Shown: piece after piece, positions 4,820 through 63,987 of the stretch
Layout: each line of letters starts with the position of its first letter
Numbering within the stretch: the first letter of the stretch is position 1
Source of the DNA: Oscillospiraceae bacterium
Lineage (GTDB): Bacteria; Bacillota; Clostridia; Oscillospirales; Acutalibacteraceae
Direction: 5' to 3'
Length of the DNA stretch: 64,000 bases
Assembly (NCBI GenBank): GCA_902790325.1
Contig: CADARP010000012.1
Coordinates: 9,475-73,474 of the forward strand
Position numbers and translations under genes: made by a program
The notes under the pieces: model-generated
Told to the model about the DNA's origin: nothing
The model's input: the letters and a program-made list of their open reading frames with translations, nothing else
Database searches by the model: none

Positions 4820-4845
4820 GCCGGACGAAATGCAAATTGTATTAC

Positions 4846-4877
4846 AAAAGGCGCCGCAAAAGCAGCGCCTTTTTGTG
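4846..4877 (+). terminator. Rho-independent terminator after the surface-protein gene
   Basis: GC-rich hairpin aaaggcgccgc-aaaa-gcagcgccttt followed by a T-run, about 30 nt after the stop codon. Confidence 0.6.
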
Positions 4878-4951
4878 CGGGGGCCGGAAGTCCGGAATAC
4901 GGAGCTTTACATTCCGGCTGCAATCTTAAAAGCTGTGCAGGAGGCTGTTTT

Positions 4952-5803: not shown

Positions 5804-6056
5804 AAGGAGAAGCGCACTGGCTTTCGGGATCTGCGGATCGTCGGCTTCTGCCGGACGCTGTCTTCCTTTCCGATGCCGACCGTTTGCATCGACCGGAGCC
5901 TGATGCGGGACGTTTCCTTACTGCCGCTGTCAACGCCGCTGCGCGGATCGACGGCGAACAGGTCGGGATCGTCCGCGGCAAGCGCCGCCGAAAAAAAGAA
6001 AACCGCGGGAATGAAACGACGTCAGTCACGGATTCCCGACGATCTGAGGTGTTTTT

Positions 6057-7169: not shown

Positions 7170-7189
7170 ATACAGGAAAGCATGCAAAA

Positions 7190-7226
7190 ATGCCGGGTCA
7201 TTCCAAAAGCGGAATGCCCGGCATAT
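7190..7226. terminator. Bidirectional hairpin terminator between convergent genes
   Basis: atgccgggtcattcc-aaaagc-ggaatgcccggcat lies between the + strand EEP gene and the - strand 171-aa gene, flanked by A/T runs. Confidence 0.5.
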
Positions 7227-7247
7227 TTGATGGATATCGATTTCCGG

Positions 7248-7763
7248 CTAACTCTCTACTGTCTCGATCCTTGCCTCGCTGCCGTCTGTGAATACCGCGT
7301 ACAGCTGCGGCAGATCGCCCGAGGCGGTGCGCCGCGTCTTGTGGAACCGCGCTGTCAGGATCAGATCGAACGACGTCGTCTCTCCTGCTTCCAGCGAAAA
7401 GGTGCTGTACTCCTCGCCCCACATGCGCACGGACGCTTCGGGCGAGAGCAGGTACCCGCTCTTGTAGTCCGACGGAAGCTCGGCGCGCAGCGCAAAATCG
7501 GACAGATCCTTGTTTGTGCCGTTGCGCAGCGTGACGGTATATGTCAGCAGCACCGTATCCGACCGCTCCTCATACATCGAGAAATGGCTTGACGCCTTGA
7601 CCATGACGGGCGCTGTCCGGATATCGCTTTTGTGCAGCATCTTCGTCCCGAAGGTCAACAGCGCCACGACCGCCGCGGCAATGGCGAGCACGACCGCAAC
7701 GGGCATCCAGATTCTTCTCTTTTGTCTGCGCGAAGTTCCGACGGTCACGTCTGTCTGTCCCAT
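7248..7763 (-). CDS. Hypothetical single-pass membrane protein
   Basis: 171-aa ORF directly downstream of glyQS on the same strand. It has a basic N-terminus, then the hydrophobic helix IWMPVAVVLAIAAAVVALLTF. No recognisable family. Confidence 0.55.
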   Translation of the reverse strand: MGQTDVTVGTSRRQKRRIWMPVAVVLAIAAAVVALLTFGTKMLHKSDIRTAPVMVKASSHFSMYEERSDTVLLTYTVTLRNGTNKDLSDFALRAELPSDYKSGYLLSPEASVRMWGEEYSTFSLEAGETTSFDLILTARFHKTRRTASGDLPQLYAVFTDGSEARIETVES

Positions 7764-7775
7764 ACGAATCTTCCT

Positions 7776-9155
7776 TTAAAAGGCGAGTGATTTTTCGATA
7801 TAGCCGACCAGCTCGCTGATGGGCAGGCGCACCTGATCCATCGAGTCACGGTCACGCACCGTTACACAGCCGTCTTCTTCGGACTCGAAATCGTATGTGA
7901 TGCAGAACGGCGTGCCGATCTCGTCCTGGCGGCGATAGCGTTTGCCGATGGAGCCGGTTTCGTCAAAGTCGGTCATGAAGTATTTGCTCACTTCGTCGCG
8001 GATCTCCATCGCCTTGTCGCTGAGTTTCTTGCTCAGCGGAAGCACGGCCGCCTTATACGGCGCGACGGCGGGACTCAGATGCAGAACCACGCGCGTGTCG
8101 TTCTTTTCGGCGTCGATGACTTCTTCGTCGTATGCCTCGCAAAGCAGCGCCAGCACCGTGCGGTCGAGACCGTAGGTCGACTCGATGATATACGGGATGA
8201 ACCGCTCGTTTGTGACGGGATCGAGATAGTCCATCTTGGTGCCGCTGTATTCCTGGTGGCGCGTCAGATCGAAATCGGTGCGGTTGTGCGTGCCGTTGAT
8301 CTCGCCCCAGCCGAACGGGAACAGGAATTCGATGTCGCACGCGGCCTTGGCATAGTGCGCCAGCTTTTCGTGATCGTGGAAACGCAGATGCTCCGGCGCG
8401 ATGCCGAGATCCTCAAAGTATTTCTTGCCGTATTCCTTGAAGTAATCGTACAGTTCGCCGTCCGTGCCTTCCTTGCAGAAGGTCTGGAACTCCATCTGCT
8501 CAAACTCGATCGTGCGGAACGTGAAGTTGCCGGGCGTGATCTCGTTGCGGAACGCCTTGCCGATCTGGCCGATGGAGAACGGGAGCTTGGCGCGCATGGT
8601 GCGCTGCACGTTCAGGAAGTTGACATATTCGCCCTGCGCGTTTTCGGGGCGCAGATAGATGACGCTCTTGCTGTCGTTGGTCACGCCGCGGAACGTCTGG
8701 AACATCAGATTGAACTCGCGGATGTCCGTGAAGTTGTGCTTGCCGCAGTTGGGACAGGGAATAGAGTGTGCCTTGATGTAGTCGAACATCTCTTCCTTCG
8801 TCATGCCGTCGGCGTGCGCGTCGGGATCGAAGTCGTCGATCAGGTTGTCGGCGCGGTGGCGCATCTTGCATTCCTTGCAGTCAAGCAGCGGGTCGGAGAA
8901 CGATGCGACGTGGCCGCTCGCTTCCCAGACGCGCGGATTCATCAGGATGTCCGCGTCGACCTCAAAGCTGTTGTGGCGCTCCTGAATAAAGCGCTTTCTC
9001 CATGTGTCCTTGACATTGTTCTTCAGACGCGCGCCCAGGGGGCCGTAGTCCCACGTGTTGGCAAGTCCGCCGTAGATGTCGCTTCCGGGGAAGATGAAGC
9101 CTCTGCCTTTGCACAGCGCGACGATCGCGTCCATGGATTTCTGCGTGTTGTCCAT
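7776..9155 (-). CDS. glyQS: Glycine--tRNA ligase (single-chain class II GlyRS)
   Basis: N-terminal IVALCKGRGFIFPGSDIYGGLANTWDYGPLG and the overall 459-aa length are typical of GlyQS. Confidence 0.95.
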   Translation of the reverse strand: MDNTQKSMDAIVALCKGRGFIFPGSDIYGGLANTWDYGPLGARLKNNVKDTWRKRFIQERHNSFEVDADILMNPRVWEASGHVASFSDPLLDCKECKMRHRADNLIDDFDPDAHADGMTKEEMFDYIKAHSIPCPNCGKHNFTDIREFNLMFQTFRGVTNDSKSVIYLRPENAQGEYVNFLNVQRTMRAKLPFSIGQIGKAFRNEITPGNFTFRTIEFEQMEFQTFCKEGTDGELYDYFKEYGKKYFEDLGIAPEHLRFHDHEKLAHYAKAACDIEFLFPFGWGEINGTHNRTDFDLTRHQEYSGTKMDYLDPVTNERFIPYIIESTYGLDRTVLALLCEAYDEEVIDAEKNDTRVVLHLSPAVAPYKAAVLPLSKKLSDKAMEIRDEVSKYFMTDFDETGSIGKRYRRQDEIGTPFCITYDFESEEDGCVTVRDRDSMDQVRLPISELVGYIEKSLAF

Positions 9156-50132: not shown

Positions 50133-50801
50133 ATGCAAAGTCTTGGAGACAACATAAAAGGATTGTTTAAAAACTGGAAGACCGTTCCAAACCTGCTGTC
50201 GGCGCTGCGTATCGTCATGGTGCCGATCATGGCTGTGTTGTTCGTGAAGGGGTATCCGCTCTGGGCGGTGTTCGTGCTGTTTTTGTCGGGACTGTCCGAT
50301 TTCGTCGACGGCAAGATCGCCCGCCGCTTCAACCAGATCAGCGACCTGGGCAAGATACTCGATCCGCTTGCCGACAAGTTGACGCAGATCACCGTGGCGG
50401 TGCTGCTGTTCCTGTTTTTCCGCAGTGCGCAGGAGTCACCGGAAATGCGCGCGTTCAGCTGGGTGTTCCTGCTGTTCGTGGGCAAAGAGCTGTTTATGGT
50501 CGTGATGAGCGTCTGGCTGCTGAGTATCGGGCTGCGCCCCGGCGCGGCGGAAATCTACGGCAAGGTCGCTACATTCGCGTATTATCTTGTGATGCTGTTC
50601 ATCGTCGCGTTCGGCCCCGAGGTCGGTGCGTTCCGCAATTTCTGGACAGCGCCTTCGCTGCTTTTGCAGATCCTCGTCGTGGTGTCCGTGGTGCTGTGCT
50701 TCATTGCGCTGTTCAGCTATTTCCCGGGCGTGTGGCGGCTGCTGCAGGAGCGTAAACAGAAACTCCAGCAAGAACAAAATCAACAAGGAGACGATCAATG
50801 A
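50133..50801 (+). CDS. pgsA: CDP-alcohol phosphatidyltransferase (phosphatidylglycerophosphate synthase-like)
   Basis: Signature D-G-x2-A-R-x8-G-x3-D-x3-D: SDFVDGKIARRFNQISDLGKILDPLADK. The ATG at 50133 follows GGAGGAA. Confidence 0.85.
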   Translation: MQSLGDNIKGLFKNWKTVPNLLSALRIVMVPIMAVLFVKGYPLWAVFVLFLSGLSDFVDGKIARRFNQISDLGKILDPLADKLTQITVAVLLFLFFRSAQESPEMRAFSWVFLLFVGKELFMVVMSVWLLSIGLRPGAAEIYGKVATFAYYLVMLFIVAFGPEVGAFRNFWTAPSLLLQILVVVSVVLCFIALFSYFPGVWRLLQERKQKLQQEQNQQGDDQ

Positions 50802-53074
50802 AACAGGTACTTTGCAGCAGATGCAAAAAACGGCCGGCGATGTTTTTTATCACCAAGATGGAAGGCGATAAAAGCACGCAGGAAGGGCTTTGCATGAAGT
50901 GCGCGATGGATATGAATATTGGCCCCATCAAGCAGATGATGCAGAGCATGGGCATATCCGAGGACGAGATTGACGACGTGTCCGCACACTATGACGAGAT
51001 GTTCGGCACGGACGGTTCGTTTGAATCCGGCGGCGCCGGAACGCTGCCGTTTATGCAGATGTTCGGACAAGGCGACGCACAGCAGCCGGATCAGGACGCG
51101 CCCGCCGAAGAAGATAAAAAGAAAAAGCGCAGAAAAGAAAAGAAACCGCAGGAGAAAAAGGAACGTAAATTCCTTTCGCTCTACTGTACGGATCTGACGG
51201 AAAAAGCGCGCGCAGGCAAGATCGACCGCATCATCGGCCGCGAAAAAGAGATCGAGCGCACGGTGCAGATTCTGTGCCGCCGCTCGAAGAACAATCCCTG
51301 CCTGATCGGCGAGCCGGGCGTGGGCAAGACAGCGATCGCCGAAGGACTTGCGATCCGGATCGCATCGGGAAACGTTCCGGTGCGGCTGCTGGATAAAGAG
51401 ATCCATCTGCTGGATCTGACCGCGCTTGTTGCGGGCACCCAGTTCCGCGGCCAGTTCGAGAGCCGCATCAAGGGATTGGTCGAAGAGGTCAAGCAGGAGG
51501 GGAACATTATTCTGTTTATCGACGAGGTGCATTCTCTCGTCGGTACGGGCGACGCCGAGGGTTCCATGAACGCGGCGAATATCCTCAAACCTTCGCTATC
51601 GCGCGGTGAGATCCAGATCATCGGCGCGACGACATTCACGGAATACCGCAAATATATCGAAAAGGATGCGGCGCTCGAGCGGCGTCTGCAGCCGGTCAAG
51701 GTCGAGGAGCCGTCCATCGACGATACGTGCGAGATGCTGGCCGGCGTGAAATCGTACTATGAAAACTTCCATGCCGTGCGCGTGAGCGATTCTCTCATCC
51801 GCAAGGCAGTGGTGCTGTCCGAGCGATACATCAACGACCGTTTCCTGCCCGACAAGGCGATCGATCTGCTCGATGAGGCGTGCACATGCGCGAATCTGCG
51901 CAACAAAGCGATCGGTGAGCTGGAGCTCTGCCGCCGTCGTATCGACGAGCTGAACGCGCAGCAGCAGTCGCTCATGGAGCAGCCGGACCAGACGGATTAC
52001 GAGGAGATCGCCAAGATCAAATCCGAGCTGATCGTCGAGGAAGAAAACCGCGAGAAGCTGGAAGCGCAGGCGGCGGACTGCTATGTGACCGAAGACGACC
52101 TTGCGCATGTTATCCAGCTTTGGACAGGCATTCCCGCCAGCAAGATCATCGAGAGCGATATGCGCCGTCTGGCCGGACTTGCCGACCGGCTGCGCGAAAA
52201 GATCATCGGCCAGGACGAAGCGATCGACGTTGTGGCGGCGGCAGTGCGCCGCAGCCGCGTGCAGATCAGTCCGCGCCGCAGACCGTCGTCGTTCATCTTT
52301 GTCGGCCCCACCGGCGTGGGCAAAACGGAGCTGGTCAAGCAGCTTGCCGCGGAGCTTTTCGATACGCCGGAAACACTCATTCGGCTCGATATGTCCGAGT
52401 TTATGGAGAAGCACTCCGTGTCGCGCATCATCGGCTCGCCGCCCGGTTACGTCGGTTATGACGAAGCGGGACAGTTGACGGAAAAAGTACGCCGCAAACC
52501 GTATTCGGTGATCCTGTTTGACGAGATCGAAAAGGCACATCCGGACGTGATGAACATCCTGCTGCAGATCCTTGACGAAGGGCGCATCACCGACGCGCAG
52601 GGACGCACGGTCAACTTTGAAAACACCGTCATCATCATGACGTCCAACGCAGGGTCCGACCGCAGAGAGGGCGCGCTCGGTTTCGGCAAGACGAAACAGG
52701 AAGCGTCTGCGGAGAAAGCGATGAAGGCGCTGCGGGATTTCCTGCGGCCGGAATTCATCGGACGTGTGGACGAGATCGTGGTATTCCATGATTTGTCTGG
52801 CGAGTCGATGAAAAAGATCGCGAATCTGATGCTCACGGAGCTTGTGGAACCGCTGCGCGACAAGGGCGTGAAGCTGACGTGGACGCAGGACGTTCCGGCT
52901 GCGCTGGCGGAGAAGGCGAGCGGCGGCGAACGCGGTGCGCGTGACCTGCGCAACGCAGTGCGCAAGAACGTCGAGGACAGGATTGCGTCGATCCTGGTCA
53001 ACCGTATTGACACGCCGCCGACCGAAATGCGTGTCACAGCCTTTGCAGGCGATATATTCGTAGAAGCAGACTAA
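50798..53074 (+). CDS. Clp/Hsp100-family AAA+ ATPase (ClpC/ClpA-like, two NBDs) with an N-terminal C4 zinc-ribbon in place of Clp_N repeats
   Basis: CSRCKK...CMKC at the N-terminus and a KKKKRRKEKKPQEKKERK linker. NBD1 GEPGVGKTAI and NBD2 GPTGVGKTEL, with a sensor/arginine-finger region. Confidence 0.85.
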   Translation: MKQVLCSRCKKRPAMFFITKMEGDKSTQEGLCMKCAMDMNIGPIKQMMQSMGISEDEIDDVSAHYDEMFGTDGSFESGGAGTLPFMQMFGQGDAQQPDQDAPAEEDKKKKRRKEKKPQEKKERKFLSLYCTDLTEKARAGKIDRIIGREKEIERTVQILCRRSKNNPCLIGEPGVGKTAIAEGLAIRIASGNVPVRLLDKEIHLLDLTALVAGTQFRGQFESRIKGLVEEVKQEGNIILFIDEVHSLVGTGDAEGSMNAANILKPSLSRGEIQIIGATTFTEYRKYIEKDAALERRLQPVKVEEPSIDDTCEMLAGVKSYYENFHAVRVSDSLIRKAVVLSERYINDRFLPDKAIDLLDEACTCANLRNKAIGELELCRRRIDELNAQQQSLMEQPDQTDYEEIAKIKSELIVEEENREKLEAQAADCYVTEDDLAHVIQLWTGIPASKIIESDMRRLAGLADRLREKIIGQDEAIDVVAAAVRRSRVQISPRRRPSSFIFVGPTGVGKTELVKQLAAELFDTPETLIRLDMSEFMEKHSVSRIIGSPPGYVGYDEAGQLTEKVRRKPYSVILFDEIEKAHPDVMNILLQILDEGRITDAQGRTVNFENTVIIMTSNAGSDRREGALGFGKTKQEASAEKAMKALRDFLRPEFIGRVDEIVVFHDLSGESMKKIANLMLTELVEPLRDKGVKLTWTQDVPAALAEKASGGERGARDLRNAVRKNVEDRIASILVNRIDTPPTEMRVTAFAGDIFVEAD

Positions 53075-53171: not shown

Positions 53172-53245
53172 GCGGGTGTAGTTCAATGGCAGAATCCCAG
53201 CCTTCCAAGCTGGTTGTGTGGGTTCGATTCCCATCACCCGCTCCA
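53172..53245 (+). tRNA. tRNA-Gly (anticodon UCC), CCA encoded
   Basis: Acceptor stem GCGGGUG/CACCCGC, anticodon stem CCAGC/GCUGG with loop CUUCCAA, T loop UUCGAUU. Confidence 0.9.
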
Positions 53246-53249
53246 TTTT

Positions 53250-53326
53250 GCGCCTGTAGCTCAGCTGGATAGAGCATCTGCCTTCTAAGCAGAGGGCCAG
53301 GGGTTCGAGTCCCTTCAGGCGCGCCA
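53250..53326 (+). tRNA. tRNA-Arg (anticodon UCU), CCA encoded
   Basis: Acceptor stem GCGCCUG/CAGGCGC, D arm AGCUCAGCUGGAUAGAGC, anticodon loop CUUCUAA, T loop UUCGAGU. Confidence 0.9.
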
Positions 53327-53328
53327 CG

Positions 53329-53377
53329 CTGGAACGACTATTTTGATACAATGTAGTCGTTCCAGCTTTTTCTTTTC
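53329..53377 (+). terminator. Rho-independent terminator of the tRNA operon
   Basis: Perfect 12-bp stem ctggaacgacta / tagtcgttccag followed by ctttttcttttc. Confidence 0.8.
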
Positions 53378-53437
53378 AAATCGTTGATAAATAAGGGATT
53401 GCGACGAGCCACAGGTTCAAAATGAATACGTTATACG

Positions 53438-53481
53438 GCGCAGAAGAGCACAATTTGAGGCTTTTCTGCGCTGCTTTTTTT
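53438..53481 (+). terminator. Second terminator-like hairpin inside the island junction
   Basis: 11-bp stem gcgcagaagag / cttttctgcgc (one G-T pair) followed by tgcttttttt. There is no obvious upstream gene for it to terminate. Confidence 0.45.
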
Positions 53482-53498
53482 ATGGGCTTTCGGCAAAA

Positions 53499-53545
53499 TT
53501 GCAACCGGTTGCAGGGGGTTGCAGGGGGTTGCAAGGGGGTTGCAT
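53499..53545 (+). repeat. Helically phased direct-repeat array (5 x TTGCA; core GGTTGCAGGGG) beginning with the palindrome TGCAACCGGTTGCA
   Basis: TTGCA occurs at 53499, 53509, 53519, 53529 and 53540 (spacing 10, 10, 10, 11 bp): ttgcaaccgg ttgcaggggg ttgcaggggg ttgcaaggggg ttgca. An AT-rich tract follows, and the array lies 75 nt upstream of the HTH gene. Confidence 0.85.
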
Positions 53546-53619
53546 TTCAAAAAATTTTAAATTTAGGGGGGAAACATTGGCCGTTTTCGTGTCCGTGTAG
53601 TGGAAGGGAGTGTTTTTTC

Positions 53620-54003
53620 GTGACGGAACGAGATAAATCTATCATCCTTGCTATGCGAGAAAACGGCGAATCATATTCGGAAATTGCGAACGCTCTCCGG
53701 ATTCCTGTCGGAACCGTAAAGGCATTATGCAGCCGCGAAAAGAAAACGGACACGAACGCGGGTGTCCTCTGTCTGACCTGTGGCGCACCAATCCCTGCGT
53801 TATCTCACGGGAAAGCGAAGAGGTTCTGCAGTCGACGCTGCTACAACAAGTGGTGGCACGCAAACCATACCGATCGGACGACGTACAACCGCACCTGCCC
53901 GGTCTGCGGTAAGGTGTTCACCGTCCGATCCAATAAGTGTCAGAAGTATTGCTCGGCAGATTGCTATCAGGCGGCGCGAAAGGCAGGCGGCGAACATGAA
54001 TAA
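53620..54003 (+). CDS. Sigma-70 region-4-like HTH protein with a C-terminal double zinc-ribbon (recombinase-module accessory/regulator)
   Basis: GTG at 53620 after GGAAGGGAG. ENGESYSEIANALRIPVGTVKALCSR is the HTH. CLTCG...CSRRCYNKWWH...CPVCG...YCSADCY are the Cys clusters. The upstream part of the track ORF (53422-53619) reads through the repeat array and is rejected. Confidence 0.7.
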   Translation: MTERDKSIILAMRENGESYSEIANALRIPVGTVKALCSREKKTDTNAGVLCLTCGAPIPALSHGKAKRFCSRRCYNKWWHANHTDRTTYNRTCPVCGKVFTVRSNKCQKYCSADCYQAARKAGGEHE

Positions 54004-54166
54004 GGATCTATTTGAATCGCTGCTTGCCTACAAAAGCATCATGGCACAGGCGAAGGTTCTGCTCCGGCGGGGCATCATAACGAAACGAGAGTACGCGCAT
54101 TTTGATACAATGTTCACCAAAAAGTACGGGTTATCTTTGGATAGTATTTTTCGGGAAAAGAGTTGA
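53996..54166 (+). CDS. Small (56 aa) SHOCT-like protein
   Basis: The ATG at 53996 overlaps the end of the HTH gene by 8 nt. LLRRGIITKREYAHFDTMFTKKY resembles the SHOCT G-x-I[TS]-x-x-E[YF] motif. Confidence 0.5.
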   Translation: MNKDLFESLLAYKSIMAQAKVLLRRGIITKREYAHFDTMFTKKYGLSLDSIFREKS

Positions 54167-54212
54167 AGTGTAGGCGGTTTAGAGCAAATATGGAGGCGGA
54201 GGTGAAAACGCA

Positions 54213-55511
54213 ATGCAAATCAAAAAACTGCCGACACTTCCGACGCTCCAGAAGAAAAAACAGGTTGCCGCATACGCACGTGTGTCAACGGGCAAGGACG
54301 CAATGCTGCACTCTTTGTCGGCGCAGGTCAGCTATTACAGCGCATACATCCAAAAACAGCCGGAATGGCTGTACTGCGGTGTGTATGTGGACGAAGCGAT
54401 CACAGGGACCAAAACGGAACGACCGGAGTTTCAGCGGCTTCTTGCCGACTGCCGTTCCGGAAAGATCGATATGATCATCACAAAGTCCATTTCCCGCTTT
54501 GCGCGAAACACTGTCACACTGCTTGAAACGGTGCGTGAATTAAAGGCACTTGGCATCGACGTATTTTTTGAAGAGCCGAATATTCACACGTTGAGCGCAG
54601 CCGGTGAAATGATGCTGACGATTCTGGCGTCGGTCGCACAGGAAGAGAGCCGTATGACGAGTGAGCGCATGAAATGGCGCGTGCGGAAGAATTTTGAAGA
54701 AGGCGTTCCATGGAATGTGACGATCCTCGGCTACACTCTACGCAACGGGCGCTTTGTAGTCGTACCGGAAGAAGCCGCGGTCGTGCGTCAGATTTTCGAC
54801 CTGTATATGGAGGGAAAAGGCTACGCCGCTATCGCCGACATACTGAACGCGGCTGACGCGAAAACGCGGTACGGACGCACGTGGAACCACACATCCGTGC
54901 GCTGGGTGCTGCGGAACTACGCCTACACCGGAAACCTTCTCCTGCAGACGACATACTCCGAAAACCATATCACGAAGCGCATGCGTCCAAATACGGGCGA
55001 AATGCCCATGTACCACGCGCAAGGTACACACGAGGCGATCATACCGCAAGAACTCTATGATGCCGTACAGCGCGAAATAGAGCGTCGTGACGCGAAGTAT
55101 TCTGACGCCGATAAACGCAGACAGACGCCGCTGGCGGGAAAAGTGTTCTGCGGCATCTGCGGCAAACGCTGTAGACGTAAGAAACGGCATGATAGGCAGG
55201 TGTGGATTTGCAACACGTTCAACGTGCACGGAAAAGACGCCTGTCCTGCAAGAGCAGTACCGGAGGATATTCTGATGCCGCTGGTTGAGGGCATCGACGT
55301 TGAACGAATTGATATTTGTAATAATAATCTGATCCGGATTCAGACAACCGGCGGTGACGTAGTGGAGCGCACATGGGCGCTGACGTCACGCCGCGACAGT
55401 TGGACACCGGAGATGAGAGAGAAAGCGAGGGAAAGAGCCAATGGCAGTTGTAACCAAAATACCAGCGACGAAAAACAAATTCACGTCGGCGTCGGCATCG
55501 CAAACGCATAA
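54213..55511 (+). CDS. Large serine recombinase 1 (resolvase catalytic domain, recombinase domain, zinc ribbon)
   Basis: VAAYARVSTGKD (catalytic Ser), IDMIITKSISRFARNT, recombinase-domain YGRTWNHTSVRWVLRNYAYTG, zinc ribbon CGICGKRC...CNTF...CP. Confidence 0.9.
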   Translation: MQIKKLPTLPTLQKKKQVAAYARVSTGKDAMLHSLSAQVSYYSAYIQKQPEWLYCGVYVDEAITGTKTERPEFQRLLADCRSGKIDMIITKSISRFARNTVTLLETVRELKALGIDVFFEEPNIHTLSAAGEMMLTILASVAQEESRMTSERMKWRVRKNFEEGVPWNVTILGYTLRNGRFVVVPEEAAVVRQIFDLYMEGKGYAAIADILNAADAKTRYGRTWNHTSVRWVLRNYAYTGNLLLQTTYSENHITKRMRPNTGEMPMYHAQGTHEAIIPQELYDAVQREIERRDAKYSDADKRRQTPLAGKVFCGICGKRCRRKKRHDRQVWICNTFNVHGKDACPARAVPEDILMPLVEGIDVERIDICNNNLIRIQTTGGDVVERTWALTSRRDSWTPEMREKARERANGSCNQNTSDEKQIHVGVGIANA

Positions 55512-57021
55512 ACGCCGCGTCGCCGCATACGCCCGTGTATCCACGGATAAGGACGAGCAGCTCACCAGCTATAAGGCGCAGGTGGACTATTACAAAAAAT
55601 ACATTCAGAACAACGATGAGTGGGAATACGTCGATGTGTATGCAGACGAAGGCATCACGGGGACGAGCACGAAAAGCCGTAAGAGATTTAACGAAATGAT
55701 CGCCGACGCGCTTGCCGGAAAGATCGACTTGATTATCACAAAATCGGTTTCCCGTTTCGCTCGGAACACGGTGGACACGCTCGTCAACATCCGCAAGCTG
55801 AAAGATGCCGGTGTCGAGTGTTTTTTTGAAGAACAGGGCATTTGGACGTTCGATAGCACGGGTGAACTGATGATCACTATGCTCTCCTCTATCGCACAGG
55901 AAGAAGCCCGCAATATTTCCGAGAACGTTACATGGGGACACCGTAAGCGGTTTGAGGACGGCAAGATTATGCTGGCGTACAAACGCTTTCTCGGTTATGA
56001 CCGTGGTGAAGATGGTAAGCCGGTCATCAATCCGGAAGAAGCTGAGATTGTACGTCAGATTTACAGATGGTTTATTGAAGGCAAGACGCCGTTCATGATC
56101 TGTAAGGAATTGGAGGCGCTGGGGATTAAAACGCCCGGTGAGAAAGAGAAATGGGGGCGGAGTACGGTTATCAGTATTCTCTCCAATGAAAAATACAAAG
56201 GTGATGCCCTGTTGCAGAAGAGCTTCACGGTGGATTTCCTGACGAAAAAGACCAAAAAGAATGAGGGGGAAGTTCCGCAGTATTACGTCGAGGGCAGCCA
56301 TCCTGCCATTATCAATCCGAAGGAATGGGATTATGTGCAGGCGGAACTTGCCCGCCGCAAAATCATCGGTAAAGCGTACAGTGGTACGAGTGTATTCTCT
56401 TCTCGATTGGTCTGCGCCGACTGCGGTGATTTCTTCGGGCAGAAAGTATGGCACTCCACTGATGCGTACAGAAAAGAGATATGGCGATGCAACCACAAAT
56501 TTGACGGCGATAAGCAATGCAGCACGCCACACCTTGTCGTGGAGCAGATTCAGGCTCTATTTCTGCAGGCGTACAACGAACTGATGCGTGATCGCAGTCA
56601 GGTGATCGCCGACTGTGGAGTTATGCGTGACGCTCTTTTGGATACTACAGACATTCAGAAGCAGATCGCAAAGGTCGATGAGGAGATGGAGATCACCGCA
56701 GCTTTGGTCGCTGCCGCCGTCAAAGAGAACGCAACGTTGCCTCAGTCGCAGGAAGAATACAATGAGAAATATGCTGCGCTTGAGGAACGGTTCTTGGAAC
56801 AGAAAGACAAACGCGCCGCCCTTGAGGCGAAGATCGCAGAACGAAAAGCGAGAGCGCATGAACTGGATTTGTTCACATACGCTCTCGCGGAAAGTGATTT
56901 AATTGTGTCAGAGTGGGATGAACAGTTGTGGTTGACACTGATCGAAAAAGGCACTGTCCTGCCGGAAGGCAGCATCAGTTTTCTGTTCAAAAACGGAACG
57001 GAGATATTGGCGGCAATGTAA
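55441..57021 (+). CDS. Large serine recombinase 2 (with a C-terminal coiled coil)
   Basis: VAAYARVSTDKDEQ, IDLIITKSVSRFARNT, WGRSTVISILSNEKYKGD, zinc ribbon CADCG...CNHKF...C. Its start overlaps recombinase 1 by 71 nt. Confidence 0.9.
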   Translation: MAVVTKIPATKNKFTSASASQTHKRRVAAYARVSTDKDEQLTSYKAQVDYYKKYIQNNDEWEYVDVYADEGITGTSTKSRKRFNEMIADALAGKIDLIITKSVSRFARNTVDTLVNIRKLKDAGVECFFEEQGIWTFDSTGELMITMLSSIAQEEARNISENVTWGHRKRFEDGKIMLAYKRFLGYDRGEDGKPVINPEEAEIVRQIYRWFIEGKTPFMICKELEALGIKTPGEKEKWGRSTVISILSNEKYKGDALLQKSFTVDFLTKKTKKNEGEVPQYYVEGSHPAIINPKEWDYVQAELARRKIIGKAYSGTSVFSSRLVCADCGDFFGQKVWHSTDAYRKEIWRCNHKFDGDKQCSTPHLVVEQIQALFLQAYNELMRDRSQVIADCGVMRDALLDTTDIQKQIAKVDEEMEITAALVAAAVKENATLPQSQEEYNEKYAALEERFLEQKDKRAALEAKIAERKARAHELDLFTYALAESDLIVSEWDEQLWLTLIEKGTVLPEGSISFLFKNGTEILAAM

Positions 57022-57420: not shown

Positions 57421-57852
57421 TCAAGGGTTTGCAGCAACATTCTTCTCATACAAGAATTGTAAATCCTGTAATACGCGCTTCTCCAGTAATTCTTGATCAC
57501 CTCCAGCGGAATTAATAATGTCTCTCAGCTTTTTGAATCCGGACTCAGCACACCGTTCTGCTTCATCGTAATTGATTTCGCGATTTGCATATCGATCGAT
57601 GTCGTCTTTATTTTCTGGGATCCCAAGCAAAATTGAAGCAAACAGTGCAAGGTCATATGATTTAATGTTTTTGAGCAAGAAATACCCGTCTTTTTTTCCT
57701 TTCATTTCTTCTGGTGAGTCTAAACCAAGTGCCGTTGCTAAAAGGAAGATGTCTTTTGCGTCCATCATATGCATCCCAAGTGTATTGTTTTCATTGCACT
57801 CATGAAGCAGACCATCTCGCAGGGAACTATTGATGAAAATTCTATCACGCAT
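57421..57852 (-). CDS. Hypothetical protein, DndE-sized and possibly DndE-like (143 aa from ATG 57852; the track ORF extends to 57960)
   Basis: The ATG at 57852 overlaps the last codons and TGA of the upstream ATPase gene (GATGCGTGA), which suggests translational coupling. It sits directly after a DndD-like gene, as dndE does. KKDGYFLLKNI...LALFASILLG is loosely reminiscent of DndE; this is recollection and needs an HMM check. Confidence 0.45.
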   Translation of the reverse strand: MRDRIFINSSLRDGLLHECNENNTLGMHMMDAKDIFLLATALGLDSPEEMKGKKDGYFLLKNIKSYDLALFASILLGIPENKDDIDRYANREINYDEAERCAESGFKKLRDIINSAGGDQELLEKRVLQDLQFLYEKNVAANP

Positions 57853-59872
57853 CGCCTTTACCAATCCCTTCAATTTGTTCTTCGTTATCAGAGAGTGCAA
57901 TATCTCGAATAGATGCTGCTCTTTCATCGTAAAGACTTTGGACTTCATTGGAGTATTCATCCGGAGTGAAAAGCATAATAATCTGCTTATACCTCGAAAC
58001 CTTTAAGAGTTCCGCAGCCATGTTTGCGCGATTTGAATCGGAAACCCTTCCCAATGGTGAGTCGACAACAAGGGGACAGTTTTTGCCTGATGCATCATGA
58101 ATTGCGAGAGTAAAAGAATATGCCAATGCCATGTATTCTGTAGCACTCAAGGAACCAGTCATCTGATTACCTTGCATATTATATACAGTTAATTCATATT
58201 TGTCGTTGATGTCGATTTTTCCAAAGGTATTCTTTTTCCAAATCATGGCGTTGAAACGTTCCCAAGTCTGACGCTGAATGTCCTCTTTGATCTCATCCAT
58301 AATGGCTTTTTCGACAGCGTCGTACTGTGAATTCAGAGTTCTAAAGGCGACCACTTCCCTCGACAACAGATCTTTCCTTTGCCTCTTTTCCTCAATTTTA
58401 CCTCTCTCCGCTATTTTTGTGGCTAAAGTTTCAGAGAGCCTTTTAATATCACTTTGGTTCAATGCCAGACGTTGTTGCAAAGATACAAGCTCATCGTTTG
58501 CATTTTTGCGTTCTGATTCTATTTTTCGTACGTCAATTCCGCCACTTTCGTCAGAGTATCGAGCTAAAAAAGCGCTTATATCATCGAGAGCCTTTTGTGT
58601 TTCTGCGATGGTTTCGGTATAATAATTATCTCGTTTCACCAGCTTTTTATATTCAGATGGGAACTCTTTGCAGCGGGCGATAATTGTTTCAAGGCCCCCT
58701 TTAATCTCCATCAGAAAATTTGATGTCGCTGAAGAAACATCCAACTCATCTAATAGCTTTTGCAAGTGCTGAATGGCCTTTTCATCAAGTGCGCCGTTGC
58801 AGATAGGACAGAATTTTGCATGATCAGATAGCAGAGATTGAATCTGCTCTTTATCGATATTGGGTGGTAATGTGCCTGCATTTTGCTTTTCGTGAATTAG
58901 GTCTAATGCAAACTTCACGCGCGGATAAAAACTTAGAAGCGTCCAGTATGTAGTAATAAATGCGTTTTTCTCCGCAATAAAGCTTTCATAATCGCTTTGG
59001 AGTTCTTTTAGCTCTTTACTCAAGGCTAACCGTTTTCCGATGTTTAGCCTAATAGGTGCGTATCCTTGCAAAGTTGCGTCTGCATCTGCAATTATACGTC
59101 GTAGTTCAGGCAACCGAGCTTCAATCTCGCTGTTTTGTGCCTTAAGATCGGATATTTTTCCTTCAAGAATGCGGATTTCGTCTGCTAAATCCGGAGCGCT
59201 TTCCTTCCCCAGTTTGGTAGCTTGCCGATACTTTTCATCGGCCATTGTACGCACATGATTGCTGGCGTTCCTCAAAAGCGTAACTTGCGAAATGTTGAAA
59301 ATTGAAGACTTTATCTTTTCGGACTTTTCGCTTGTAAAGTAGCTTTTTAGGTTTTCACCATCAAAGAAGTAGTAGTCATAAATTGCCTCATCGAAGTATT
59401 GCTTAACGATACTTTGAACTTCAGCTTCATCTTCGATAACAACAGAGTTCGCAGCGCTGTCGGTTGGGGTCTTGATTACCTTCAACTTTGACTGCCCTGG
59501 TCGTGCGCTTTTTGCATTGGTCAGGGGACTTTCAATCACGAAGAAAGATTGAGTGCGTTCAAATACTATGATTTCCCCGTCATTGTTCAAGGTCAAGCGG
59601 GCAGTAACGCTAAGCGAGTCTTTTGGATTTGAGCGCTGAACGAGTGCACTGTTAACTATAGGAAGCGCTTTATCTTTGTCACTCAGATAATGCTCTGACG
59701 CATAAAGACACCAGAGAATGCCATTTAGAAAAGTTGTTTTTCCCGTTCCGTTTTTTGCGCGAAGAATGTGCAAATCACAGTCCTCTCCACTTTGGAAGGA
59801 CACATTAACAGACCTGTACTGGCGATAGTTTTCAAATTCAACTTTAGTTATTCTGATCATCACTATCACCAT
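57845..59872 (-). CDS. SMC/Rad50-like ABC ATPase of the DndD type
   Basis: N-terminal IRITKVEFENYRQY, Walker A AKNGTGKTTFLNGILWCLY and FFDGE. A long coiled-coil middle contains CPICNG (hook-like CxxC, residues 355-358). LSATEYMALAYSF is the ABC signature. Walker B/D-loop PLVVDSPLGRVSDSNR is followed by QIIMLFTPDE. The alternative start ATG 59860 gives MIRITKV. Confidence 0.75.
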   Translation of the reverse strand: MVIVMIRITKVEFENYRQYRSVNVSFQSGEDCDLHILRAKNGTGKTTFLNGILWCLYASEHYLSDKDKALPIVNSALVQRSNPKDSLSVTARLTLNNDGEIIVFERTQSFFVIESPLTNAKSARPGQSKLKVIKTPTDSAANSVVIEDEAEVQSIVKQYFDEAIYDYYFFDGENLKSYFTSEKSEKIKSSIFNISQVTLLRNASNHVRTMADEKYRQATKLGKESAPDLADEIRILEGKISDLKAQNSEIEARLPELRRIIADADATLQGYAPIRLNIGKRLALSKELKELQSDYESFIAEKNAFITTYWTLLSFYPRVKFALDLIHEKQNAGTLPPNIDKEQIQSLLSDHAKFCPICNGALDEKAIQHLQKLLDELDVSSATSNFLMEIKGGLETIIARCKEFPSEYKKLVKRDNYYTETIAETQKALDDISAFLARYSDESGGIDVRKIESERKNANDELVSLQQRLALNQSDIKRLSETLATKIAERGKIEEKRQRKDLLSREVVAFRTLNSQYDAVEKAIMDEIKEDIQRQTWERFNAMIWKKNTFGKIDINDKYELTVYNMQGNQMTGSLSATEYMALAYSFTLAIHDASGKNCPLVVDSPLGRVSDSNRANMAAELLKVSRYKQIIMLFTPDEYSNEVQSLYDERAASIRDIALSDNEEQIEGIGKGDA

Positions 59873-60032
59873 CCATTTCCTTTAGGTAATCAATAACCAG
59901 CCGCTCATATGTTTCCTTGAACCTATGATTCCCCTTATCCTCTTCTTCAAGAATGGCGAGCATAAGCATTTTTAGATCTTCCGGCACATCGAGCGCAACA
60001 ATTTTTTCAAATATCTTCTCACTGATAGGCAT
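59844..60032 (-). CDS. Small acidic protein (62 aa), unknown function
   Basis: The ORF overlaps the helicase stop by 14 nt and the ATPase start by 17-29 nt, so it fills the junction exactly. The C-terminus is DGDSDDQNN. No family recognised. Confidence 0.45.
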   Translation of the reverse strand: MPISEKIFEKIVALDVPEDLKMLMLAILEEEDKGNHRFKETYERLVIDYLKEMDGDSDDQNN

Positions 60033-62106
60033 CTTCGCTTACCCCGTTTCTTTTAAAGATTTCAATCACTTCATCTCGGTTTATTGCGTTATCTGCGATT
60101 TGCATTGCGCGACGGAATTCTTTTTGGAGGATCCTAATATCTATTTCACTACCACTGGACGGGCTGACAATTAAATCATAGATGTGAGAAAAGGATTTTC
60201 CTTTGCATGGCCTAATAACCCTACCAACTCTTTGGACGAATTCTCGTGGATTTGTGCTGCTTGCCATCAAAATTGCAATTCTTGCTGTGGTAATATCGAT
60301 TCCTTCGTCCAAACATTTGATTCCTATCAGAACTTGCACACGCCCATTTCTAAACTGATCAATGGCTTCTTGCCGCTCTGTATTGCCATGGACGCCTACT
60401 TTTTTCGAGGCCGATATTTCTTCAGTGATTTTGCAACGTGATATTTCGTGACTACTGAGCATATTCAGTAGAGGGGACACCTGTTTATCTGTTGCAAAAA
60501 TAATTGTGTCTTTGATGCGAGACTCATTATTGAGCTGTAAAACAATCTCTTCAACAGACGCGAGTTTCATTTCTGCATTCTTTAAGATATTAGCTCTTCG
60601 AATCAGGAGCATGTTCAAACGCTCAACGTCAACTTCTTCCGCAGAAGAAACAACGGCAATCTCACGGCTCAACTTCGAATAGTCTCTACACTCTGATTCT
60701 GACAGTTCAACAAAAACAGGATGATAATAGAACGGATTAAGAAACGGCTTTCCGGTTAAAGGATTAATTGTTCCCAACGCGTCTTTAATTGTGAATTCAA
60801 ATGATTGATTGCCGAAATACTCCCGAATAATACTGGTTCCATATTCATCAAACATGCGTTCCGGTGTTGCACTTAATCCAACACGATAGCGGTATATATC
60901 TAATAATGCCTGTTTCTGATGATCTGAGCCAATAGCATGAACTTCGTCGCAGATAAACATAATTTCCGCTTTGCCATGATTCTTGCTGATGATTTCAATA
61001 AAAGCGTTGCTCGAAACCGTATTATGCGTTGTGTATACTATCGCATTTTTATAACGATCTGCGTTAAGATCTAATAAGCATATTTCAAGATCCTTTTTCC
61101 ACCTGGGATTACTCCCGTCGATAATACGCGAACGATCACTTTCAATACCAAGTGATTCGATATCCGTTTGCCACTGCCGTGACAAGGTGTTTTGCGGAGT
61201 CGCAATAATCACGAGAAGCCTCTTGGTATGCGAAAGAAGAGTCAGCATGCATCCAATTGCTGTCCTCGTTTTTCCTGTTCCAGTTGCCATCTCCATGAGG
61301 AGACTACGGTCGTTTTCAAGCCATTTATTCACAGCCTTTTGCTGATGGCTAAATAGCGAAATCTCATTTACTTTTTCTTTTTGTCTATCCCTGTATTTTT
61401 TCATTATTGAGAGATCGCTCACATTGCGTGGCGCCACCTCAATAATCTTGTGTGTTATTGACTCAGGAATGGTATATACAGCTGCAACATCGTCCCTTTC
61501 GCCATTCCAAAACTCATTAAATTTTTTTAAATCAGCAAGCAAATACTCTCTTTGACCAGGTTCCCATGATTTGAACGTTTTGAATTCCTCAATGTTACTT
61601 AACCATGCTTGCGCAGACTCATTGATCGACCCACTGAAAGATATCATGTCTCCATTAGAATCGTAACCAATACCAATCTTTTGGTGGAATAAACTATCTG
61701 ACGAATGTCGGTCAACGACGATTTTAATATCGAGTTTTTTATTTGCCAGTAACCAAGCGAGGGCTTGTAAGTTGTCCAATTGTTTAAATGCTTCTATATC
61801 GAACTGCTGAAAAAAAGAAAGCGCTTCAGGTGCGACATTCGATTGGGATTCTCTTAGAACGCGTGCGTCCTGCTCCGATAACCGTGGAGAAATCAGTAGA
61901 CGCATAAACCCGCCATTTCGTATTAACCCTTCTATCCCTTTTGAAGCGACGGCAAGACTGCTGCTGCTAAAGAATCCTGCAATCCGGAAATATTGCTTCG
62001 TCTGCTCAAGCATCGGAATGTAAAAAGCGTCAAGAAGCTGAGAACGATCGCTGGATGTTTCATAGCTGATTTTTATATCCAGATTTCTGTAACCCATCAT
62101 TGCCAC
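60019..62106 (-). CDS. PLD-family (HKD) nuclease domain fused to an SF2 DEAH-box helicase (ResIII plus Helicase_C)
   Basis: The HKD motif FHQKIGIGYDSNGDMISFSGSINES is at residues 140-164 (nt about 61621-61686). Helicase motif I MATGTGKT (274-281), motif II ICDEVH (385-390), motif III GLSATPER, motif VI QRVGRVIRP. An in-frame ATG at 62100 forms an ATGA overlap with the upstream stop and may be the true start. Confidence 0.85.
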   Translation of the reverse strand: MAMMGYRNLDIKISYETSSDRSQLLDAFYIPMLEQTKQYFRIAGFFSSSSLAVASKGIEGLIRNGGFMRLLISPRLSEQDARVLRESQSNVAPEALSFFQQFDIEAFKQLDNLQALAWLLANKKLDIKIVVDRHSSDSLFHQKIGIGYDSNGDMISFSGSINESAQAWLSNIEEFKTFKSWEPGQREYLLADLKKFNEFWNGERDDVAAVYTIPESITHKIIEVAPRNVSDLSIMKKYRDRQKEKVNEISLFSHQQKAVNKWLENDRSLLMEMATGTGKTRTAIGCMLTLLSHTKRLLVIIATPQNTLSRQWQTDIESLGIESDRSRIIDGSNPRWKKDLEICLLDLNADRYKNAIVYTTHNTVSSNAFIEIISKNHGKAEIMFICDEVHAIGSDHQKQALLDIYRYRVGLSATPERMFDEYGTSIIREYFGNQSFEFTIKDALGTINPLTGKPFLNPFYYHPVFVELSESECRDYSKLSREIAVVSSAEEVDVERLNMLLIRRANILKNAEMKLASVEEIVLQLNNESRIKDTIIFATDKQVSPLLNMLSSHEISRCKITEEISASKKVGVHGNTERQEAIDQFRNGRVQVLIGIKCLDEGIDITTARIAILMASSTNPREFVQRVGRVIRPCKGKSFSHIYDLIVSPSSGSEIDIRILQKEFRRAMQIADNAINRDEVIEIFKRNGVSEDAYQ

Positions 62107-62792
62107 CTTATTTGATCTTTAAGCGGAAGATCCTCAAGTATTAGGTTCATAATAATCTCATTATTATGTTTCCTTCTAATAATCGTTTGCCCAGAAAGTG
62201 CAACTGATACAGTATCAATATAAGACGCATATCCGTTCGTCTTTGCTTCGTAGATTAGTGTTTTAATCAATGGATTTCTTACCGCTAACCGTTTGATTAG
62301 TTCGTGCTTTTCCTCGACAGATAGCATTGTAGACACACTGCCTAATGAAGATATTCGCACCATATTACATTTTCGATCTGGCTCTCGTCCAATAAGAACA
62401 AGAGTGAGCATCGCGGCAGTTTTGGCATGGTTTTCTCCGTATTTGATACATGCATACTGCTGTGATGCGTGTGTTAGCCTTTGACCGGCCTCTTCGTAAG
62501 AAAGCCGATTTTCTTCAAATTCCAAAATGGTGCACAACGTGTCTGTCGCATCATCGAGTTTGCTGTATTGGAAAATATCTTTTGGCGATAACGGATAAGG
62601 ATGGTTGATGGCGTCGAGTAACCTTAAAATAGGAATTGAAAGCAATAACCTTATTGCCTCAACAACATCATCGTTATCACCCACGGTTAGTGTTTCTAAA
62701 GATTCTGGTGAATAGTCGAGATACTGTTGTAAAAAAACATTTTCTTTTTCCGTGTTTCCTGTCGCCAAAAGCCAATCCCTATAAAAGCTCAT
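62097..62792 (-). CDS. Hypothetical protein (231 aa), no recognisable family
   Basis: The ORF is tightly packed between the radical SAM and PLD-helicase genes (19-nt gap upstream, overlapping stop/start downstream). The AT-rich codon usage matches its neighbours. Confidence 0.6.
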   Translation of the reverse strand: MSFYRDWLLATGNTEKENVFLQQYLDYSPESLETLTVGDNDDVVEAIRLLLSIPILRLLDAINHPYPLSPKDIFQYSKLDDATDTLCTILEFEENRLSYEEAGQRLTHASQQYACIKYGENHAKTAAMLTLVLIGREPDRKCNMVRISSLGSVSTMLSVEEKHELIKRLAVRNPLIKTLIYEAKTNGYASYIDTVSVALSGQTIIRRKHNNEIIMNLILEDLPLKDQIRWQ

Positions 62793-62811: not shown

Positions 62812-63987
62812 TTAATCTTTCATATGAAGATCCTGATAATCTTCATATCGCAAATCAAAGTATCTTTCTGCGATTTCTGGGTGCTTTGCCTCAAAATCAA
62901 GCATTGCTTTATATGATGAGCACAGTGTCCCCTCGGTTTTGTGAAGTTTCTGATTTTCTTCGCAAAAACGTCTGAAGCTCATTTTTTTATATATGCTCGG
63001 CTGGTTGCCCCAACGTGCAATGGCAATATACATACCGGCGTATTCGGACTCTTTCCATGGCTTATAGTTTTTGTCTTGATAACGCATGATATAAGGGAGA
63101 CACTGATAATGCATTAACAATTCCAGCCGCTTGAAACAGTTTTCAATGTCAATCGCATCCGTTCCTTCAAAACCAACAAGAACATAAAACTTGATATTCC
63201 GTGCTTTGGAGTATCTTCTGATCATCTCAAGTTTTTGCTTGATCAGTTCATAATCTGCGATATTATCAAATGCGAAAGTATAGTCTCCGTCGTATTTTGC
63301 CGCAAACAGTATTTTACATTTTTCATCTGTTAAAAGTCTCTCGTCGAGCCCTTGCTTGAATTTAAATGGGTACCCAGTATTGATTAACTGCTGAAGTAGT
63401 TCCCTCCAGTTTGGATAGCCGAGAAAATTGTCATCCAATAAGCAAATTGCCCTGCGGTTTCTGTCAAAAAACTCATCAAGGGGACTACTTGGGAAAACAT
63501 GGTCGTATTTTTTGTTTACGCAGAACTCACATTTCCGAAAACATCCGCGAGTTAAGAATCCTATACTATAGTCCGTATACTCTTTGAACTTAACCAGGAA
63601 AGCCTTTCTGTTAAAGGACTCGCCCCTCTCTTGTTCTGCTTTTCTTACTTCACTTTCAATCCATTCATCATACAGAGTATAATCAGGCATGTGGTGTTCG
63701 ATTCTCGGATCGAGGTTGGGTGCTTTGTCAAAAAAGAATCCCGTCCCTCCATAGCTCACTTTATCCCTATCCTCCATATAGTGCTGTATCCATTCAGGAA
63801 CGGGGGTATCTGTAAACACCTTTGAAATATAAATATGATCGTATTCGTGTATATCCACTTGTTGTAAAATTAATGTAACTTCAGCACCTTGCTCCTTCCA
63901 GTATCCAGATATCTTCTCACATATGAGGTTTGGAAAACGGTGCTTTTTTCTGCCTATTAAATCGGCGTCTATGATTCCTATTTTCAT
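62812..63987 (-). CDS. Radical SAM enzyme with an N-terminal roughly 140-aa Rossmann/B12-binding-like domain
   Basis: The canonical 4Fe-4S/SAM motif GFLTRGCFRKCEFCV (C149-x3-C153-x2-C156; nt 63520-63543) follows the N-terminal domain MKIGIIDADL.... The ATG at 63987 has GGGAAGTGA upstream. Only 13 nt of upstream sequence are in the window. Confidence 0.8.
   Translation of the reverse strand: MKIGIIDADLIGRKKHRFPNLICEKISGYWKEQGAEVTLILQQVDIHEYDHIYISKVFTDTPVPEWIQHYMEDRDKVSYGGTGFFFDKAPNLDPRIEHHMPDYTLYDEWIESEVRKAEQERGESFNRKAFLVKFKEYTDYSIGFLTRGCFRKCEFCVNKKYDHVFPSSPLDEFFDRNRRAICLLDDNFLGYPNWRELLQQLINTGYPFKFKQGLDERLLTDEKCKILFAAKYDGDYTFAFDNIADYELIKQKLEMIRRYSKARNIKFYVLVGFEGTDAIDIENCFKRLELLMHYQCLPYIMRYQDKNYKPWKESEYAGMYIAIARWGNQPSIYKKMSFRRFCEENQKLHKTEGTLCSSYKAMLDFEAKHPEIAERYFDLRYEDYQDLHMKD

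Follow-up and report, generated by a model that had tools for sequence, protein, structure and literature searches.

A PbeABCD-type gene cassette with an upstream radical-SAM gene on a low-GC island of an Oscillospiraceae bacterium: a candidate nuclease-helicase effector and a putative DNA-marking pair

Near one end of a 64,000-nucleotide stretch of Oscillospiraceae DNA (assembly GCA_902790325.1, contig CADARP010000012.1; this whole stretch is the window, in whose coordinates all positions are given) lies a minus-strand gene whose product joins a nuclease-like N-terminal domain to a helicase, and which our searches assign to the known anti-phage family PbeA. The gene stands third in a run of six, in the order radical S-adenosylmethionine (radical-SAM) enzyme, a 231-residue protein that we call p231, PbeA, PbeB, PbeC, and PbeD (Table 1). 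Start and stop codons overlap at four of the five junctions (e.g., the TGA of p231 overlaps the start of PbeA, as ATGA, in the sequence AATGATGGG), a 19-nucleotide gap separates the radical-SAM gene from p231 at the first, and all six belong to a single operon with translational coupling; promoter and terminator scans did no better than scans of shuffled sequences. PbeA itself is known; what appears to be new is that a radical-SAM enzyme and p231, a DNA-binding candidate, occupy the place of the usual DNA-marking genes.

Table 1. Features of the PbeABCD-type cassette and of the adjoining island edge (window coordinates)
Feature	Position	Strand	Description
Radical-SAM enzyme	62812..63987	(-)	391 aa, divergent; CxxxCxPhiC motif C149/C153/C156; flavodoxin-like N-terminal domain; first operon gene
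p231	62097..62792	(-)	231 aa, fast-evolving, helical, possibly winged-helix-like
PbeA	60019..62106	(-)	N-terminal single-HKD nuclease domain (phospholipase D, PLD, superfamily) and XPB/Rad25-like superfamily 2 (SF2) helicase
HKD/PLD-like domain of PbeA	61372..62055	(-)	~residues 18-245; H141-x-K143...D149...G159-S160-x-N162 at ~61615-61686
SF2 helicase core of PbeA	60067..61365	(-)	~residues 248-680; motifs I GTGKT, Ia TPQNTL, II DEVH, III SAT, VI QRVGRVIR
PbeB candidate	59844..60032	(-)	62-aa acidic protein, net charge -9; overlaps PbeA stop and PbeC start
PbeC	57845..59872	(-)	Coiled-coil ATP-binding cassette (ABC) ATPase with CxxC zinc hook (C355, C358); sister of DndD
PbeD candidate	57421..57852	(-)	143 aa from Met37 of a 179-aa open reading frame, as in homologues; ATG overlaps PbeC stop by 8 nt
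Two tandem large serine recombinases	54213..57021	(+)	Island edge, outside the system; Pfam Resolvase, Recombinase, and Zn_ribbon_recom
Helix-turn-helix (HTH)/zinc-ribbon protein	53422-54003		193 aa; island edge
tRNA-Gly(tcc) and tRNA-Arg(tct)	53172-53326		Island starts just after

Counted from its GTG codon, the PbeA open reading frame (ORF) encodes 695 residues; homologues and gene callers place the probable true start at Met3 or Met4 (62100 or 62097), giving 692-693 residues, and an exact-sequence look-up matched the 692-residue form and returned nothing for the GTG-start form. The initial annotation had described a single HKD motif in the N-terminal domain and, joined to this, an SF2 helicase of the DEAH type with all its motifs, and our analysis bore this out: HQKIGIGYD is at residue 141 and GSINES at 159, there is just one H-x-K in the N-terminal domain (with the spacing H-x-K-x5-D), and the helicase motifs follow at residues 276 (GTGKT), 387 (DEVH), 412 (SAT), and 625 (QRVGRVIR). 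In an alignment of 17 homologues, ranging down to 41% identity, the HKD residues H141, K143, D149, G159, S160, N162, and E163 are all invariant, as are those of the helicase (Walker A, D387/E388/H390, S412-T414, and Q625/R626/G628/R629). This strict conservation supports a catalytically competent nuclease, and does not by itself decide between cleavage, a block to replication, and suicide. Nuc and BfiI are single-HKD nucleases with one HxK...GSxN half-site per chain, which implies dimerization to form the active site; PbeA is like them in its one half-site, and unlike them in being fused to a motor and in having no detectable sequence similarity to solved PLD proteins.

Searches with family models gave matches to PbeA far beyond chance. 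The PADLOC PbeA model (672 positions) covers residues 7-680, i.e., the protein from end to end, with an E-value of 1.4e-196, and all five PADLOC PbeA sub-models match it; on this basis we regard the protein as a genuine member of the PbeA family. Matches to the Pfam families ResIII (1.6e-21), DEAD, and Helicase_C (2.2e-15) were above their cut-offs, whereas PLDc_2 scored 17.5 bits, under its gathering cut-off of 27; the same family was detected in 14 of the 17 homologues, the best E-value being 1.5e-7, and the NCBIfam model NF042964 (PLD-domain anti-phage protein) spans residues 18-318 (2.6e-29). The initial annotation had also pointed to TIGR04095, a model of the "DNA phosphorothioation system restriction enzyme" (dnd_restrict_1, an equivalog domain). 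This is indeed the best NCBIfam match of PbeA (337.4 bits, 1.5e-100) and the proposed dnd-linked lineage stands; however, the match is confined to the helicase half (residues 248-680), and since the score falls below the curated cut-off of 600 bits, PbeA is not that equivalog by NCBI's own criterion. A sequence search of the PDB found no deposited structure of PbeA itself, and identified archaeal XPB/Rad25 as the nearest solved helicase (1e-26). PbeA shares a ResIII-type SF2 translocase core with that helicase and with the type I/III Res/HsdR subunits; its nuclease, however, is of the HKD/PLD type rather than the PD-(D/E)xK type, and it goes together with an ABC ATPase and small proteins instead of a methylase/specificity complex. 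DISARM (DrmA/DrmC) and Mokosh are defence systems in which a PLD nuclease is found with a helicase, in DISARM as separate proteins, and the initial annotation had drawn the comparison. It did not hold, as no Drm or Mko model was among the 25 best of the 37 PADLOC matches of PbeA, and neither family (DrmA/DrmB/DrmC or MkoA/MkoB) appeared in the listed PADLOC matches of five of the cassette proteins, while the sixth, the PbeB candidate, had no match at all; membership of either system was rejected.

The genes downstream of PbeA had been read as DndD- and DndE-like modification genes, so that PbeA would lie between putative modification genes in an unusual layout. Our searches indicate that they are instead the partners of PbeA, i.e., PbeC and candidates for PbeB and PbeD, and not phosphorothioation genes; the A-B-C-D order seen here is the canonical Pbe layout, and it is the upstream radical-SAM gene that remains a putative modification gene. 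PbeC matches the PADLOC PbeC model over its full length (2e-82) and far better than that of DndD (1e-32) or the NCBIfam DndD model TIGR03185 (1.6e-27), and both its Walker A and the C355-x-x-C358 pair in the middle of the coiled coil are invariant in 18 homologues; this CxxC "CxC zinc hook" sets the PbeC clade apart from DndD (PMC10853773). Identification of PbeC and PbeD as the DndD and DndE of phosphorothioation was rejected. The 62-residue ORF between PbeA and PbeC fits PbeB, described as a "rapidly evolving small protein". It was predicted independently by gene callers in three assemblies, and an ORF of 53-69 residues with a weakly conserved pattern is present at this position in 17 of 19 cassette loci; it is assigned by position and weak similarity, and had no HMM match in PADLOC or Pfam. 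The 143-residue gene downstream of PbeC is the positional PbeD candidate, with both position and family kept in 18 loci as a conserved gene of 140-150 residues.

The characterized PbeABCD system of Haloterrigena jeotgali gives ~10^4-fold protection, for which all four pbe genes and phosphorothioate (PT) modification are needed (Xiong et al. [quoted passage not shown] The cassette described here is like it in its four components and their order: first PbeA with its HKD and SF2 parts, then a small protein, next the ABC ATPase with the CxxC hook, and downstream of that another small protein. It is unlike it in that neither dndCDEA nor cytosine methylases adjoin it; the genes coupled to it upstream are instead those of a radical-SAM enzyme and p231. 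The modification modules to which Pbe genes are linked (dndCDEA, or C5/N4 cytosine methylases with MTaX1) were not found within 8-10 kb, dndA, dndC, and methylase genes were all absent within ~8-10 kb of the cassette on the source contig and in the other cassette loci, and Pfam identified no recurrent methylase or Dnd family among 99 proteins flanking 18 cassette loci, the commonest flanking families being resolvase, AAA_14, and sigma-70 region 4 (three members each). A missing modification module does not exclude membership of the Pbe systems, as many PbeAC pairs in the literature are solitary (58% have no dndCD nearby; PMC6459918). We found no radical-SAM or p231-like protein in the Pbe/CxC descriptions that we searched, a set without the 2020 paper of Krishnan et al., in which CxC systems were first described.

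These comparisons bear on a first alternative, namely that PbeA is a PT-dependent restriction enzyme, the equivalog of TIGR04095, surrounded by a PT machinery based on DndD and DndE. This would be in keeping with TIGR04095 as the top NCBIfam match, with the secondary matches of PbeC to DndD models, and with the PT requirement of the characterized system. We nevertheless consider it improbable: the helicase half is homologous to that of the TIGR04095 family, but PbeA scores under the cut-off and dnd genes are not nearby; PbeC is much closer to its own model and carries the hook that DndD lacks; genes for DndA and DndC/PAPS-reductase are absent from the cassette and the surrounding 8-10 kb in 18 loci; and, as noted above, more than half of PbeAC pairs lack neighbouring dndCD in any case.

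The first gene of the operon is predicted to encode a divergent enzyme of the radical-SAM superfamily. The 391-residue protein matched nothing in Pfam, NCBIfam, or PADLOC, nor did it match the PDB by sequence, as a single sequence or as a profile; Pfam Radical_SAM gave sub-threshold matches in its relatives only. It did match PHROG 9298, "radical SAM domain protein" (3.6e-50), and belongs to a family of 1,769 clusters at 50% identity (E-values of 1e-3 or less), across which C149-x3-C153-x-F155-C156 is nearly invariant. AlphaFold 2 models of this enzyme and of p231, both made from database sequences only, had mean confidence (pLDDT) values of 94.3 and 95.5, respectively. The folds closest to the enzyme model were MiaB, MtaB, and RimO (Foldseek E-value 8e-8, probability 1.0, template-modelling score ~0.5; 12-16% sequence identity), with SuiB, MoaA, LipA, and BlsE ranking lower. 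Like MiaB, MtaB, and RimO, the model has a two-domain fold with a flavodoxin-like N-terminal domain and a radical-SAM barrel; however, two further marks of MiaB and RimO, namely three cysteines near the N-terminus that bind an auxiliary [4Fe-4S] cluster and a TRAM domain at the C-terminus, were not seen here, the family alignment showing no conserved cysteine outside the radical-SAM triad, the N-terminus included, and Pfam reporting no TRAM domain. As the family has no conserved N-terminal cysteines, it would not be a methylthiotransferase, and this function was rejected. The "Ophion" radical-SAM defence system, in which PHP and PRTase proteins accompany the radical-SAM enzyme, is unrelated. 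One member of the family, P0294 (734 residues), contains a LAGLIDADG homing-endonuclease domain (348-399) N-terminal to the matched radical-SAM stretch (472-727), which may represent an intein or else an inserted homing endonuclease.

The second gene, p231, had 41 detectable relatives, all unnamed, with the conserved motifs KYGENHxK and TxxRRxxN, and no match in Pfam, PADLOC, or, by sequence, the PDB. Its weak fold matches were mostly to winged-helix proteins (ROQ, MarR, ORC, and the kleisin winged-helix domain), and the order of helices and strands in the modelled segment H79-E147 would be compatible with a winged helix; DNA binding by p231 is offered as a lead only. We take p231 as the obligate partner of the radical-SAM enzyme. 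Among the long representatives of the radical-SAM family, at least 13 were matched at their C-terminus by a p231 profile (E-values down to 1e-42), i.e., there are independent natural radical-SAM/p231 fusions of 600-700 residues (P0243, P0251, P0261, P0264, P0275, P0279, P0284, P0332, and others), which suggests that both proteins act as one unit. Across the cassette loci the radical-SAM enzymes are 65-67% identical, as against 40-57% for PbeA, 27-43% for PbeC, and ~30% for p231; a conserved radical-SAM enzyme beside a diverging p231 is the pattern expected of a catalytic subunit with a specificity or recognition subunit.

The cassette recurs. Its six-gene order is kept in three metagenome-assembled genomes from two phyla (Verrucomicrobiota, Ruminococcus flavefaciens, and Lachnospiraceae), in an Anaerovoracaceae genome, and in ~14 distinct metagenome loci; a scan of genome contigs with the single radical-SAM protein gave three loci, the wider set coming from alignment-based scans, and as each collection contributed its 80 best matches to the locus sets, our fractions of co-occurrence hold for these samples rather than for the family as a whole. 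The radical-SAM/p231 pair also brackets a second conserved six-gene cassette, comprising the radical-SAM enzyme, a ParB-like protein (334 residues), a 135-residue protein, an SNF2 helicase resembling ZorD/DpdE (PADLOC 4e-48), another ParB-like protein, and a p231-like one, in which PbeA and PbeC are absent. It was identified in three metagenome loci (L008, L009, and L015) and in the cultured rumen isolate Lachnospiraceae bacterium JC7 (L170; GCA_000513555.1, 10001-15734), and its existence suggests that the pair is a portable module that joins different effector sets. In the Anaerovoracaceae genome (L168, GCA_050953505.1) genes for CTD6, MC2, and a 613-residue AAA_23 ATPase (4604-7855) lie directly upstream of the PbeABCD-type cassette, and in the locus L006 (3385-7116) genes of similar size (433, 178, and 643 residues), without a Pfam family match, take that place; if the two sets are related, this suggests a defence island. 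The PbeD gene of L168 encodes only 76 residues; after it come two IS21-type transposase/IstB pairs.

The radical-SAM family is at least as common in phages, with more than 531 confirmed matches in IMG/VR viral contigs. We compared 92 loci in which the radical-SAM gene is followed downstream by at least 6.5 kb of sequence, and an HKD-PbeA with PbeC was present there in 13 of 30 cellular loci as against none of 62 viral loci. In phages the gene occupies the region upstream of terminase, and its neighbours include N6/N4 and C5 DNA methylases, S-adenosylmethionine synthetase (MetK), PAPS-reductase-like proteins, SNF2 helicases, and HNH endonucleases; in the annotated Oscillospiraceae phage NatCom_21982 there is an overlap between it and a DNA methyltransferase gene, at the latter's 3' end. 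In a neighbour-joining tree the Pbe-linked and ParB/SNF2-linked copies formed two groups among copies of the phage type. As the phage copies occur without Pbe proteins, the substrate would be one common to both settings (DNA, nucleotides, or RNA) rather than a Pbe protein. Orphan phage modification enzymes with cognate copies in host discrimination systems are a well-known pattern for DNA methylases. In several viral loci (e.g., L096-L103 and L115) the phage's own S-adenosylmethionine synthetase gene adjoins that of the small terminase subunit and precedes the radical-SAM gene by one or two genes (usually including an N6/N4 methylase), the whole making up a SAM-consuming DNA-modification block.

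The distribution of PbeA weighs as well on a reading outside defence, in which an XPB-like helicase-nuclease and an SMC-like ATPase would serve the replication, repair, or maintenance of a mobile island. The helicase core is closest to an archaeal repair helicase, the cassette is on an element with recombinases, and in one genome it adjoins phage-like SNF2 and DNA polymerase genes. We regard this reading as very improbable, since PbeA matches models of a defence family over its full length, that family has been shown to defend (PMC6459918), its neighbourhoods are varied and include other defence-like gene sets, and PbeA is absent from all of the viral loci carrying the radical-SAM gene that were compared.

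Comparative genomics leads us to speculate that the radical-SAM pair probably supplies a self-mark, and the explanation that we favour, with a confidence somewhat above even, is that PbeA is the nuclease-helicase subunit of a PbeABCD-type cassette whose radical-SAM enzyme and p231 write the mark of the host. PbeC, a Rad50/SMC-like ABC ATPase with a zinc hook, and PbeD, presumably a small DNA-binding protein, would by homology and the literature load on DNA and scan it. PbeA, since each chain has a single HKD motif, would dimerize through its half-sites into one Nuc/BfiI-type active site, translocate on DNA by its XPB-like ATP motor, and nick, cleave, or physically block the replication of DNA lacking the host mark, with the small acidic PbeB perhaps restraining or regulating the complex. 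The mark would be neither a phosphorothioate nor the methyl group of a classical methylase, being written by the radical-SAM enzyme under the guidance of the variable p231, and phages, with orphan copies of the radical-SAM gene beside those of their methylases and SAM synthetase, might mark their DNA in the same way and so escape. The wider claim, that the enzyme and p231 write a new radical-SAM-dependent and sequence-specific DNA modification, serving at least two effector sets as a self signal and copied by phages for evasion, we put forward more tentatively, as a possibility that falls short of even.

A number of observations count against the favoured explanation. The only experimental Pbe study found that PbeABCD blocked viral DNA replication without detectable DNA cleavage (PMC6459918), while cleavage has been deduced from the conserved HKD by comparative genomics, in which a suicide model is offered as an alternative (PMC10853773). 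The "effector/restriction module" of the initial annotation accordingly keeps its first half, the effector of a defence cassette being the best reading, while restriction by cleavage is not established for the family. In a profile search of the PDB the HKD domain of PbeA matched no solved PLD nuclease. The nearest folds to the radical-SAM enzyme, MiaB and RimO, modify tRNA and protein rather than DNA, the fold of p231 has no significant match in the PDB (best E-value 0.03), and the cassette locus L024 is without p231 altogether. As to PbeD, the candidate itself was recognized by neither PADLOC nor Pfam, a single homologue of the candidate matches the PADLOC PbeD model, and weakly (0.0012), and Pfam DndE was absent in 13 members of the candidate's family. 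No transcript data were found, no RNA runs containing the PbeA gene, and the search for dnd genes at the home locus covered the 64 kb of the window and ~6.7 kb beyond its end.

Prokaryotic viperins are radical-SAM enzymes that act as direct antiviral effectors, and with this precedent a further alternative is that the system is independent of modification and abortive: a cue from the phage, e.g., removal of PbeB, would free PbeA to act on any DNA, that of the host included, and the radical-SAM/p231 pair, instead of marking self, would serve in sensing, in regulation, or as a second effector (by producing an altered nucleotide or by modification of RNA, for example). The published suicide model (PMC10853773), the likeness of the radical-SAM fold to RNA- and protein-modifying methylthiotransferases, and the cassette lacking p231 all agree with it. 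Its main difficulty is that the radical-SAM family abounds in phages, among DNA methylases and MetK and without Pbe genes, which is hard to reconcile with a role as an anti-phage effector or sensor; moreover, the fusion and co-variation of the enzyme with a fast-evolving, possibly winged-helix-like partner fit the recognition of sites. We therefore judge this alternative unlikely, though it deserves more weight than the two set out before it.

PbeA alone adds little, its family being already in the catalogues of defence systems. Its invariant HKD residues nonetheless bear on the disagreement between the experiment in which no cleavage was seen (PMC6459918) and the argument that the nuclease must act (PMC10853773), and a compact bacterial cassette of six genes is a convenient object for settling the question. 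For about half of the PbeAC pairs in the literature no modification partner is known, and the radical-SAM enzyme with p231 is a concrete candidate for some of them. Were the wider claim true, it would add a third marking chemistry to the Dnd-related systems, after phosphorothioation and methylation, and if the radical-SAM enzyme does modify DNA this would be a new epigenetic chemistry with the signature of an arms race, spread among gut and rumen bacteria and many phages.

The cassette is carried on a low-GC mobile island. Its G+C content is 40%, as against 60% in the first 50 kb of the window, with a stepwise drop from 0.60 to 0.40 at the island edge, and this edge (53172-57021) has the look of an integrative element adjoining tRNA genes, with its other end outside the window. 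The two serine recombinases at this edge overlap slightly and are 43% identical to each other, and a 56-residue SHOCT peptide is encoded near them. Relatives of the HTH/zinc-ribbon protein at the edge lie directly upstream of the radical-SAM gene in the phage contigs L031 and L091-L093, and one gene further in L105, usually following an HNH endonuclease, which hints at a common ancestry of the island with those phages. The operon's first gene lies 13 bases inside the end of the window, on its upstream side, and the 80-kb ENA contig L001, with the same sequence, adds 6.7 kb past that point, containing small ORFs, an SRAP protein, and a 1011-residue Fic-domain protein, and neither dnd genes nor a methylase. 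In L001 (1421-5155) the Fic-domain protein has a small partner on the opposite strand, with the SRAP protein (an abasic-site sensor) in the same segment. The sequencing runs found to contain this sequence were bovine and goat gut metagenomes. Just before the tRNA genes, at 50798-53074 of the window, an ordinary chromosomal neighbour encodes a ClpC/ClpB-type double-AAA ATPase of 758 residues with an N-terminal zinc-ribbon-like CxxC...CxxC segment.

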